A stretch of 64,000 nucleotides of DNA from an uncultured Chloroflexia bacterium. GTDB lineage: Bacteria; Chloroflexota; Limnocylindria; Limnocylindrales; CSP1-4. Positions 49,376-58,740 of this stretch are shown here, one piece after another. The stretch lies in NCBI GenBank assembly GCA_963748625.1, contig CAVVJT010000007.1, positions 1,088,001 through 1,152,000 on the forward strand, written 5' to 3'. Below the pieces are notes generated by a model, which saw only the letters and a list, made by a program, of their open reading frames with translations, was not told the DNA's origin and made no database searches. The number at the start of each line of letters is the position of its first letter. Within the stretch, counting starts at the first letter, position 1. Position numbers and translations under genes: made by a program.

Positions 49376-49405
49376 TTGCCAACCTCGCACATCGTCGGGT
49401 AGGGT
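49376..49405 (+). promoter_or_regulatory. Putative sigma70 promoter
   Basis: TTGCCA (49376-49381), 18 nt spacer, TAGGGT (49400-49405). Confidence 0.55.
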
Positions 49406-49410
49406 TCGCG

Positions 49411-49545
49411 CAGACGAAAGGAGGTGATGTGCAGTGATCGACAGTAGTAGTTGCTGCACCACCTCGGCGGAGATCGTCGCCTAGAGACGATCCGGCCGGG
49501 TGGTCGGTAGCAATCGGACGCCGGTCCAGCGATGGGCCGGCGTTC
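49411..49545 (+). ncRNA. Candidate structured small RNA or leader containing a 16-codon ORF (49434..49484, MIDSSSCCTTSAEIVA)
   Basis: Promoter upstream, AAAGGAGGTGAT, two stems and a terminal 13 bp GNRA hairpin; see findings. Confidence 0.55.
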
Positions 49546-49553
49546 GTGCGTCC

Positions 49554-49585
49554 GGGACCCGGGGTGCCCGGGACCCGGGGTGCCC
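49554..49585. repeat. 16 bp tandem duplication
   Basis: GGGACCCGGGGTGCCC twice. Confidence 0.85.
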
Positions 49586-49692
49586 GCGACCAGCGATGCG
49601 GGCCCGGAGTGCCTGCATCAGTGCCTCGGACCCGGAACCCGGACCTCCATGCGAAACTGACCCCCCACACGCTCACCCGAGGAGACGCCGCC

Positions 49693-50154
49693 ATGGGCGA
49701 GACCATCGCCCAGAACCGAAGAGCCCGCCACGACTACAGCATCGAGGACACCTTCGAGGCGGGTATCGTGCTGCGCGGCACCGAGATCAAGAGTGTCCGC
49801 GCCCACAAGGTGAGCCTGGCCGATGCGTACGCGCGGATCGAGCGCGACGAGGCCTGGATCATCGGCCTGCACATCGCTCCGTGGGAATCGACGGACCTCC
49901 GCTTCAACCACGAGCCCAAGCGCGCGCGGAAGCTGCTCCTCCACCGGCACGAGATCGACGAGCTGTTGGGCAAGACGAAGGCGAAGGGCCTCACGATCGT
50001 GCCCCTCGCGCTCTATATCAACGACCGCGGCAGGGCGAAGATGAACCTCGGGCTGGCCAAAGGCAAGCAGACGTGGGACCGCCGCCGCGAGATCGCCGAA
50101 CGGGACGCCAAGCGGGACATGGCACGCCAGGTCGCGGACGCCCGGCGGCGCTAG
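49693..50154 (+). CDS. smpB: SsrA-binding protein
   Basis: IAQNRRARHDY, EAGIVLRGTEIKSVR, RKLLLH, AKGK..WDRR; GAGGAG RBS. Confidence 0.98.
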   Translation: MGETIAQNRRARHDYSIEDTFEAGIVLRGTEIKSVRAHKVSLADAYARIERDEAWIIGLHIAPWESTDLRFNHEPKRARKLLLHRHEIDELLGKTKAKGLTIVPLALYINDRGRAKMNLGLAKGKQTWDRRREIAERDAKRDMARQVADARRR

Positions 50155-57000: not shown

Positions 57001-57984
57001 TCAGGCTGGGTTCAGCCTCGTCACCGATGATCGGGCCAGCCGCTCTTCGAACCGCTTCGCAGCTGCGTCGAGCTTGTCCAGGTGGTCGGCCAGCCGCTGG
57101 CGGGCCTCTTCGGCGGCGGCATCGAGCCCGGTCAGCTCGAAGATGCCCCAGTGCTTCAACACCGGCATGAGCACCTCGTCGCGGTGGACCCGCAGGTCGT
57201 AGATGCCGGCCTTCGCGATGTCGGCCGCCTTGCGCATGAAGTTCTGGATCCCGGCGCCTGGCATCTCGAACCCGAGGACCTCGTCCACGATCGCCCGGAC
57301 CGCCGCGGACGGCTCGATCAGCAGGGCCGCCTTGAGGATGTCGCGGTAGAACACCATGTGCAGGTTCTCGTCGGCCGCGATCCGGACCATGATCTTGTCC
57401 GCCACCGGGTCATCCGAGTAGCGCCCGGTGTTGCGGTGCGAGATCCGGGTGGCAAGCTCCTGGAACGCCACGTACGCGAGGCCGTGGAGCGTGTCGGGGT
57501 TGTTCCGGTCGTAGCCCTGCTGGAGCTGCGCCATGCGGCCTCGCTCCAGGAGCGTCGGGTCGAAGTTCCGGGTGACCACGAGGTAGTCCCGCAGGACGAT
57601 CGCGTGCCGGCCCTCCTCGGCGGTCCAGCGGCCAACCCAGTTGAGCCATGCGCCATCGCCCTTGCCGAACATCCCGTGGATCAGGCGGTGATAGCTGGGC
57701 AGGTTGTCCTCGGTCAGGAGGCCGATCTCGAACGCCGTCTGCGCAACGCCGGTGAGCCGCGGCTGGTCCGGGGTCCAGGGCTCCTTGTCGAAGTCACGCC
57801 CCAGCCGGTAGGGGATGTACTCGTGGGGGAACCACTCCTGCGTCACCTTGAGGTGCCGGTCCAGGAGGCGGCCGGCCTCGGGCTCGAGCTCGGCGAGCAG
57901 GCGCCGATCGAGCGCTGGGACGTCGGACGGGTGGATGGGGTCGGCGGGGACCTGGAGCGCGTCGGGCGCGATCTCGTCGGGCAT
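57001..57984 (-). CDS. Acyl-ACP desaturase (DesA-like di-iron enzyme)
   Basis: WFPHEYIP, LTEDNLPSYH, WTAEEGRH, FQELAT, DENLH, FEMPG. Confidence 0.93.
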   Translation of the reverse strand: MPDEIAPDALQVPADPIHPSDVPALDRRLLAELEPEAGRLLDRHLKVTQEWFPHEYIPYRLGRDFDKEPWTPDQPRLTGVAQTAFEIGLLTEDNLPSYHRLIHGMFGKGDGAWLNWVGRWTAEEGRHAIVLRDYLVVTRNFDPTLLERGRMAQLQQGYDRNNPDTLHGLAYVAFQELATRISHRNTGRYSDDPVADKIMVRIAADENLHMVFYRDILKAALLIEPSAAVRAIVDEVLGFEMPGAGIQNFMRKAADIAKAGIYDLRVHRDEVLMPVLKHWGIFELTGLDAAAEEARQRLADHLDKLDAAAKRFEERLARSSVTRLNPA

Positions 57985-58369: not shown

Positions 58370-58740
58370 GGGGATGCGTGGTTTCGACAGGGCTTGGCTG
58401 CTTGGAGACGCGAGCCGAGGTGCCGTCAGGCCTCGTTAAACAGGCGGCAAACAGAAGTAACTGCCAACAAGCAGCCTGCTCTCGCCCTCGCCGCTTAGGC
58501 GGTAAGGTGAGCATGGAAGCGGCCTCCCCTTCGCGGGCCGTGGAAGTGTCACTCAGCGAAGGTGCAACCCCGGTGAGGTCACGTAGCCGGGAGCCAAGCC
58601 CGATCTAGGGACACGGGAATGGACCGGACGGAAGCCTGCCGATGGGCGTCCGCCGGTTGACGAAAATCATCGGACACGCTCGTAGTGGATCCAGGCGAAG
58701 GGTTCTGGACGGGGAGTTCGACTCTCCCCCATCTCCACCA
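58370..58740 (+). ncRNA. ssrA: tmRNA
   Basis: 5' GGGGATG pairs with 3' CATCTCC-ACCA with a G3.U wobble; GGTTTCGAC; T-arm GGGGAGTTCGACTCTCCCC; tag frame 58463..58498 ANKQPALALAA*; extended -10 TGcTAGCAT at 58332-58340. Confidence 0.97.

Follow-up and report, generated by a model that had tools for sequence, protein, structure and literature searches.

Directly upstream of smpB, the 64,000-nt window (the whole stretch of DNA that was analyzed) contains a compact RNA unit in which an extended Shine-Dalgarno (SD) sequence precedes a mini-ORF. The unit is real and strongly selected, not a product of chance. Judged by its sequence, it appears to be a variant of the rre/CC2171 kind of small gene that would work like those genes, rather than a formal member of either family. 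We favor, with moderate confidence, its interpretation as an autonomous small gene of this kind, a ribosome-trapping mini-mRNA with a functional tie to the rescue of ribosomes. The unit has two conserved pairings that exclude each other, and related units stand in front of genes of ribosome rescue or RNase R in three separate lineages.

Anatomy and conservation of the unit

The unit is located between a gene for an S41/PDZ peptidase (Pfam) and smpB, and is present in a single copy in its genome (Table 1). Every coordinate given in the initial annotation of this DNA matches the sequence upon re-reading of the window.

Table 1. Features of the unit and of the adjacent smpB gene, in window coordinates
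Feature	Coordinates	Strand	Basis
Promoter-like hexamers TTGCCA (49376-81) and TAGGGT (49400-05), 18-nt spacer	49376..49405	+	Sequence; register kept in relatives
Extended Shine-Dalgarno GAAAGGAGGTGAT, 13 nt	49416..49428	+	Perfect complement of own 16S 3' tail
12-nt SD as first described, AAAGGAGGTGAT	49417-28	+	Sequence
Mini-ORF, GTG start, 16 codons, TAG stop (49482-84), peptide MIDSSSCCTTSAEIVA	49434..49484	+	Sequence
State A hairpin: SD and spacer (49421-34) with in-ORF anti-SD mimic CTGCACCACCTC (49454-65)	49421..49465	+	MFE, pairing in relatives
State B hairpin: in-ORF TTGCTGCACCACC (49451-63) with downstream SD mimic GGTGGTCGGTAGCAA (49500-14), enclosing stem 2	49451..49514	+	MFE, covariation
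Stem 2, GATCGTC (49472-78) with GACGATC (49486-92), stop codon in loop	49472..49492	+	Sequence, covariation
13-bp GCGA-capped hairpin (49516-45) and conserved tail GTGCGTCC, no U-tract	49516..49553	+	Covariation, tail conservation
Variable spacer with two tandem copies of GGGACCCGGGGTGCCC	49554..49585	+	Sequence; not conserved between relatives
TGCGAAACT, candidate extended -10 of a separate smpB promoter	49650..49658	+	Motif in same-genus loci
smpB, with SD GAGGAG (49679-84)	49693..50154	+	Pfam PF01668, E 1e-58

The 16S rRNA of this genome ends in ..GGAUCACCUCCUUUCU at its 3' end, and the unit carries a perfect complement to this end that spans 13 nt and is separated by 5 nt from the GTG start. 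The super-Shine-Dalgarno proposed initially is thus borne out, and is extended from 12 to 13 nt on the genome's own 16S tail. The duplex energy is -20.6 kcal/mol for the 13-nt SD paired with 16S rRNA, versus -7.0 kcal/mol for GGAGG. Across all 4.63 Mb of the genome, the 11-mer AAGGAGGTGAT has just two occurrences, one in the unit and one as the complement of the 16S end. The 13-nt SD is invariant in all 46 aligned members of the class, save for A/G at one position.

The promoter initially read as TTGCCA-18-TAGGGT is present in the form of hexamers, with TTGCnC and TAnnnT in constant register across 30 same-genus loci; the corresponding hexamers of another family are TTGACG-17-TAGCAT. Strict scans for sigma-70 promoters and U-tract terminators returned 0 sites. 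The 5' end of the RNA is predicted at about 49412-14.

The annotated mini-ORF has counterparts throughout the class. Among 86 distinct units, the start codon is GTG in 83 and ATG in three; the ORF spans 13, 14, 15, 16 or 17 codons; and the stop codon is TAG in 65, TAA in 16 and TGA in five. All five lengths end at the aligned stop, and every one of the 86 units retains a start and an in-frame stop; in family f3, the mini-ORF has 28 codons. That at least four changes in length have left the start, frame and stop intact speaks for an ORF that is read, and the unit is probably both transcribed and translated. In the control with frames +1 and +2, GTGA itself gives an immediate stop. Sensing specific to RF1, that is, to UAG, was considered and rejected because TAA and TGA stops are used as well.

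The encoded peptide looks incidental, as far as can be judged from the codons, because loop codons vary at all three positions and the conserved residues coincide with paired RNA: T-T-S corresponds to the anti-SD mimic CACCACCUC, E-V or E-I to a GAGGUG-like segment, and the Cys and Thr codons likewise fall on paired positions. Rare AGU codons are retained in this genome of about 70% GC. Peptides of different clades (types of 14, 18, 21-25, 13-17 and 28 aa) are unrelated; the peptides are hydrophilic, and those of the class are rich in Ser, Thr, Cys, Asp and Glu.

The unit is also found in RNA libraries, as contigs of close relatives in three of four metatranscriptome runs, each from a different study. 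All four RNA contigs containing the unit begin at positions equivalent to 49421-32, with nothing upstream, and extend for 15-75 nt beyond the hairpin, into spacer sequence that is dissimilar. The smpB contigs begin at 49662-87, including 49677 and 49687; no contig bridges the unit and smpB, and 49570-49633 is without cover in the four runs, which is uninformative either way. RNA libraries may hold DNA and contigs cannot prove transcript ends; these contigs hint only weakly at read-through and at a 5' end immediately ahead of the SD.

Two mutually exclusive pairings

The MFE fold of 49405-49550 has a z-score of -6.28 relative to shuffled sequences. It contains a second pairing (49451-63 with 49500-14) that is absent from the initial annotation and competes with stem 1. 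Stem 1 itself, in which GAGGTG (49421-26) pairs with CACCTC (49460-65) and GTGCAG (49429-34) with CTGCAC (49454-59), is present as first drawn. It constitutes state A, in which the SD and the spacer are paired with CUGCACCACCUC inside the ORF, and which is part of the MFE structure of all seven diverse units folded from the predicted 5' end. GAAAG at the 5' side of the SD is unpaired, and pairing begins at the GGAGG core. Over 46 sequences, 93.7% of the state A cells are paired; as the SD side is frozen, most changes affect one side only and keep the pairing. From class to class, the spacer changes together with its partner (GUGCAG/CUGCAC versus GCCU/AGGC versus GCCC/GGGU).

In state B, the in-ORF segment pairs with a downstream SD mimic, GGGUGGU..GUAGCAA, and this fold becomes the MFE structure once the 5' end is blocked, as it would be by 30S. 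The core helix is 94.1% paired over 46 sequences, and its column pair 55-100 is A-U in 39 sequences and G-C in seven, the latter coming from two lineages. Either the SD pairs with the in-ORF anti-SD mimic, or the mimic pairs with the downstream SD mimic, and both of these mutually exclusive arrangements are conserved. The mean energy difference between states A and B is -0.3 +/- 5.5 kcal/mol, with 17 of the 46 sequences within 3 kcal/mol; state A is favored by 3-12 kcal/mol in two families.

The two other stems described at the outset were recovered as well. Stem 2, with TAG in its loop, has double-sided changes at eight of its 10 pairs in relatives. The 13-bp GCGA-capped hairpin at 49516-45 is 96% paired, with eight to nine covarying pairs, and its tail is conserved throughout family f1. 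Whether the RNA is folded free, with a ribosome at the start or with one at the stop, this 3' hairpin is present in 7/7 units. Pairing of the SD mimic with the 3' hairpin as an antiterminator was considered and rejected, as the constrained folds of the seven units contain no such pairing.

Relatives and gene neighborhoods

Among same-genus genomes, 35 of 36 carry the unit, at 84-92% identity. In another family, with genomes of 1.0-1.4 Mb, the sequence match is limited to the 5' 33 nt. A 16S-derived origin of these short matches was rejected because the loci contain the same unit before smpB, once with ATG instead of GTG. A covariance model built from 46 units yielded one to two matches each in 147 of 151 genomes of the class, six of which are flagged as unpublished; the matches include 110/110 high-quality genomes and cover five families and 35 genera. 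In 41 of 136 other Chloroflexota genomes (one flagged as unpublished), the model matches at E<=0.01. Apart from these two counts, nothing reported here depends on the unpublished genomes. The class of carriers is probably Limnocylindria, in the phylum Chloroflexota. The comparison across related genomes that had been called for initially yielded homologues, covarying stems and a kept ORF.

At the gathering score, Rfam detects nothing at the unit. The best match is RF01867 (CC2171), at 19.8 bits versus a gathering score of 75 and an E-value of 0.017-0.09; it is below the threshold, but the unit is the best CC2171 match in the whole genome and is aligned over its full length. CC2171 is a Caulobacter sRNA, reportedly described by Landt et al. 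in 2008. The unit resembles it in the 5' CGAAAGGAGGUGAU..CAGUG and in the 3' GC hairpin with a GCGA loop, whereas the internal domain differs.

The initial annotation could not match the unit to a named family. This remains accurate for Rfam at threshold, but a described kind exists, the rre small mRNAs: rreB of Bradyrhizobiaceae (14 aa) and rreR of Rhodobacterales (18 aa), each with a 17-nt SD (Hahn et al. 2016, PMC5711450). According to the accessible text of that paper, rreB accumulates as a discrete small RNA on Northern blots, co-sediments with 30S and is found mainly in the ribosome fraction, is weakly translated, and decays in a start-codon-dependent manner; its overexpression has no growth phenotype. 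The same text describes the RreB and RreR peptides as unstructured, reports that the extended SD lowered translation, suggests a trapped ribosome, cleavage and rescue, and finds the genomic context of rre not conserved outside Bradyrhizobiaceae (PMC5711450). The terms arfB, yaeJ, smpB, Chloroflexi and CC2171 have no occurrence in this accessible text, and our literature search found no later paper on rre genes. CC2171 is likewise expressed as a discrete small RNA in Methylorubrum, by Northern blot, according to the accessible part of that report (10.1101/2022.01.24.477521).

Compared with rre as described there, the unit has the same general design. The rre genes encode a discrete small transcript with its own promoter and terminator; in the unit, the promoter-like hexamers and the 3' hairpin are conserved, and the RNA contigs begin at 49421-32 and run past that hairpin. 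In rre and in the unit alike, a 5'-proximal SD is extended over the single-stranded 16S tail and is followed by a GTG mini-ORF (14-18 codons in rre; 13-17 codons here, with GTG in 83/86); the 5' seed is single-stranded, while a conserved first hairpin takes up the remainder of the SD; there is one copy per genome; and the peptide is not conserved between clades. The unit also differs from rre. The complement spans 16-17 nt in rre and takes in the start codon's first base, whereas here it spans 13 nt (14 in family f3) and ends 5 nt before the start. In addition, the ORF of the unit contains an anti-SD mimic, and an SD mimic lies downstream; the two give rise to the second, competing hairpin. 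Furthermore, rre genes are alphaproteobacterial, whereas the unit belongs to Chloroflexota and is fixed before smpB.

A scan of one genome per species with the motif GAAAGGAGGTGRT-N1-3-CAGTG identified at least 120 loci. Among the matches listed, the 21-nt form of the motif is that of Chloroflexota (contigs named Chloroflexota, Limnocylindria and Limnocylindrales), and the 19-nt form is mostly that of Alphaproteobacteria, with a few matches in Planctomycetota, Acidobacteriota, Gemmatimonadota and others, a distribution which suggests that mini-ORFs with an extended SD are broader than Alphaproteobacteria and Chloroflexota. The mini-ORF types among these listed matches are MSHC... (21-25 aa), MSxxKRCHLAGIAR (14 aa) and MSRVILERGVGT... 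(18 aa). The MSHC-type alphaproteobacterial units are bona fide CC2171 (80-97 bits); the KRCHLAGIAR and MSRVILERGVGT types match rreB and rreR, respectively, as given in the accessible text of PMC5711450, and are also missed by the CC2171 model at threshold. Our class covariance model also aligns end-to-end to alphaproteobacterial units, at up to 44 bits, at loci preselected by the motif.

Individual loci add some detail. The 19-nt extended SD with GTG, followed by ORFs of 12-26 codons, is present in Planctomycetota (L044, L075, L142), Acidobacteriota (L060, L070, L113), Gemmatimonadota (L096) and MAGs labeled Burkholderiales (L078, L087). In other Chloroflexota classes (L207-L226), the extended-SD mini-ORF units are free-standing, have U-tract terminators and are often flanked by mreB on one side and a biotin-protein ligase gene on the other; in some of these, GGAGGTGATG is repeated once more inside the ORF, and CUCCUUU is present as an anti-SD mimic.

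Neighboring genes were named by Pfam scans, because antisense shadow ORFs confound the clustering of flanking ORFs when the DNA is GC-rich. In 88 of 90 distinct units of the class, smpB starts 10-216 nt after the hairpin; the other two units run off contig ends. In families f3 and f5, smpB follows in 14/14 loci. In total, the unit is upstream of smpB in 102 of 104 loci of the class, so the linkage to smpB first seen in the window holds across the class. Among Chloroflexota units outside the class, smpB was found within the fetched flanks in 0 of 23, and at least nine of 21 precede birA (biotin-protein ligase), the others having other neighbors.

In Rhodobacterales, the gene that follows rreR encodes an ArfB-type protein of about 140 aa with an RF-1 domain (Pfam). 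Among the matches listed in the first sample, arfB is at +179 to +316 in 14 loci and farther in three. An independent draw, in which one exact 19-mer occurred in 71 of 121 genomes and 30 loci were read (L242-L271), gave a similar picture: arfB follows rreR in 25 of the 30, at +175 to +360 in 24 and at +473 in one, and is not found within 1.5 kb in the remaining five. Loci of the first sample with rreR directly before arfB include L048, L050, L059, L066 and L072; in L072, the ATG of arfB lies only about 11 nt after the terminator tail. In Bosea (L079, 3017-3191), a bona fide CC2171 copy (88.5 bits) is located 289 nt upstream of a same-strand RNase R gene with RNB, CSD2 and S1 domains. Two Xanthobacteraceae-like loci have a CC2171 copy that precedes DUF188, and many alphaproteobacterial copies have unrelated neighbors.

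Three separate lineages thus place extended-SD units before smpB, arfB or rnr, and from this recurrent synteny we infer a functional tie of the unit to ribosome rescue. As every conserved adjacency could go back to a single inherited event, the case for a rescue theme amounts to about three independent events, noticed post hoc. A literature search found no described leader or sRNA before smpB or arfB.

Two further features of the window lie downstream. A tmRNA gene (58370-58740, plus strand, 132 bits) is located 8.2 kb downstream of smpB, so that the rescue partners are near each other, not adjacent. About 750 nt upstream of the tmRNA gene, there is a match to the mycobacterial sRNA ASdes of Rfam (57549-57615, plus strand, 41.5 bits versus a threshold of 40), which is probably due to chance or mis-assigned.

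Proposed mechanism and alternative explanations

We propose that an mRNA of about 140 nt is made from the unit's own promoter, with the 13-nt 16S complement at its extreme 5' end, followed by the GTG mini-ORF. In the free RNA, most of the SD would be locked with the in-ORF anti-SD mimic, leaving only the 5' GAAAG single-stranded as a seed. By analogy with rreB, 30S would dock on this seed and invade the hairpin. The freed anti-SD mimic could then re-pair with the downstream SD mimic, forming the second hairpin around the stop codon. The ribosome, positioned on a poor GTG start, would be held by the -20.6 kcal/mol SD helix behind it and by a roadblock ahead. Translation would be slow or arrested, and turnover of the RNA would depend on the fate of that ribosome, as the experiments on rreB suggest. 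Given that such units have been retained immediately upstream of smpB, arfB or rnr in independent lineages, the trapped ribosome would presumably be resolved by the ribosome-rescue machinery. The activity of the unit may be coupled to the adjacent rescue gene via read-through of the U-poor hairpin, interplay with the smpB promoter, or both. The anatomy, the conservation, the two-state pairing, the synteny and the presence in RNA libraries are observed; capture of 30S, trapping and the link to rescue are the conjectural parts of this scheme, with binding, translation and trapping carried over from rreB.

The autonomous-gene reading is ranked first. The second-ranked explanation, which we consider unlikely, is a cis-acting leader or attenuator, whereby ribosome occupancy of the mini-ORF decides transcription or mRNA survival into smpB, so that SmpB would be under feedback control by ribosome or rescue status. 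The fixed place before smpB (10-216 nt, 88/90 and 14/14 loci) fits this explanation, as do RNA contigs that continue 15-75 nt past the hairpin and, in Rhodobacterales, the short distance from the terminator tail to arfB in L072. So does family f4, where only about 28-64 nt, with no visible SD or promoter, lie between the hairpin and the smpB ATG. The hairpin tail is also U-poor in the class (a mean of 1.6 U of 9 versus 4.6 in the free-standing units of other classes), although this comparison is confounded by genome GC and by the script's placing of the stem end. However, the hairpin persists in every constrained fold of the seven units, with no antiterminator, and units of this kind occur as free-standing elements both in other classes and in the majority of alphaproteobacteria. 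Moreover, smpB appears to have its own promoter, which makes a cis attenuator less likely: the motif TGn[GCA]AnACT, a TGCGACACT-like sequence resembling an extended -10 (49650-58 in the window), is located between the hairpin and the smpB SD in 26 of 31 distinct same-genus loci. In families f3 and f5, whose units have U-tract terminators, a script located a TAnnnT hexamer immediately after the terminator in nine of 14 loci, at a distance of 6-9 nt from the start of smpB; this suggests that smpB is leaderless there, with its own promoter. The SmpB proteins of these two families (L228-L241) have an N-terminal extension relative to the SmpB of the window. Of the attenuator envisaged initially, therefore, the linkage to smpB (102/104) stands, whereas the Ser/Cys/Thr codons vary, no antiterminator was found in the seven units and smpB seems to have a promoter of its own. 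The narrower version, a sensor of amino acids based on these codons, strikes us as barely credible, and the same applies to a type I toxin mRNA. The window's ORF does contain runs of such codons, and a sequestered SD is a feature of many type I toxin mRNAs, too; but the runs are not conserved (for example, MSSPCHATTEAVR and MSERRRCTTSQEMTV), and smpB has no link to the supply of Ser, Cys or Thr. In particular, the hallmarks of a trp-type attenuator are absent, with no conserved codon run across the class and a 3' hairpin that persists in the constrained folds of 7/7 units. The toxin proposed initially is not supported by the comparison either: the peptides are short, hydrophilic and variable between clades rather than hydrophobic or membrane-active, and the genome has no second copy.

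Less likely than a cis-acting leader is a trans-acting RNA or 30S decoy that is not productively translated, and that titrates or marks 30S, or pairs with the SDs of other mRNAs through its CACCUCC-like anti-SD mimic; the adjacency to smpB would then be inherited synteny without function. CC2171 and rreB do accumulate as discrete small RNAs on Northern blots (10.1101/2022.01.24.477521; PMC5711450), rreB mainly in the ribosome fraction and with weak translation (PMC5711450), as far as the accessible texts go, and the anti-SD and SD mimics are conserved. Among the three options raised in the initial annotation, a 30S-binding or decoy RNA is the best supported, by analogy with the co-sedimentation of rreB with 30S. 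A pure decoy, however, would not need a start, a frame kept over five lengths and an in-frame stop in 86/86 units; overproduced, ribosome-binding rreB did not slow growth in the experiments described in the accessible text (PMC5711450); and pure chance is an unlikely cause of the repeated placement of such units next to smpB, arfB and rnr in separate lineages. A micro-protein gene, with the 16-aa peptide (motif S-C-x-T-[ST]-x-E) as the product and the strong SD serving high expression, is improbable. The similarity of peptides within clades and the synonymous differences between families (TCG/TCT, GCC/GCA) would fit such a gene, but peptides of different clades share no sequence, the conserved residues map to paired RNA (CACCACCUC for T-T-S, GAGGUG for E-V), and rare AGU codons are kept despite the GC-rich genome. 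The unstructured RreB and RreR peptides, and the lowering of translation by the extended SD, also argue against a micro-protein, within the accessible text of PMC5711450.

The ribosome-trapping reading can be extended to a broader proposal, which is possible but which we hold only tentatively. SecM-secA and MifM-yidC2 are monitoring substrates, in which nascent-peptide arrest unmasks a downstream SD, and for arfA, the non-stop mRNA of the rescue gene itself serves as the sensor. In E. coli, arfA is under trans-translation control, according to the accessible text of PMC10107115. Together, rre, CC2171 and the Chloroflexota variant might form a cross-phylum monitoring substrate, in which an SD tether and an RNA roadblock trap a ribosome; the speed of its clearance by tmRNA-SmpB, ArfB or RNase R would set the fate of the RNA and, via read-through or promoter interplay, the expression of the downstream rescue gene. 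As in the arfA, SecM and MifM systems, a stuck ribosome may report the capacity of the factor that resolves it and set the expression of that factor. Unlike in those systems, the proposed arrest would result from the SD tether and the RNA roadblock on a separate mini-ORF, with a coupling mechanism that is only hypothetical.

The rre/CC2171 RNAs, known since 2008/2016, are conserved, expressed and ribosome-bound, and units of the type described here escape gene callers and Rfam at threshold. Alphaproteobacteria are not the only bacteria with this kind of RNA: nearly all members of one Chloroflexota class have it, and it is present in others, and the two-state switch of SD, anti-SD mimic and SD mimic is part of the design of the Chloroflexota variant. 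The location of rreR before arfB, of a CC2171 copy before the RNase R gene in Bosea, and of the variant before smpB are new here. They turn the speculative remark on a trapped ribosome, cleavage and rescue in the accessible text of the rreB paper into a concrete hypothesis that is testable in Rhodobacter, Dinoroseobacter and Caulobacter. If this hypothesis is true, the unit would be the first described regulatory or sensing element adjoining smpB or arfB.
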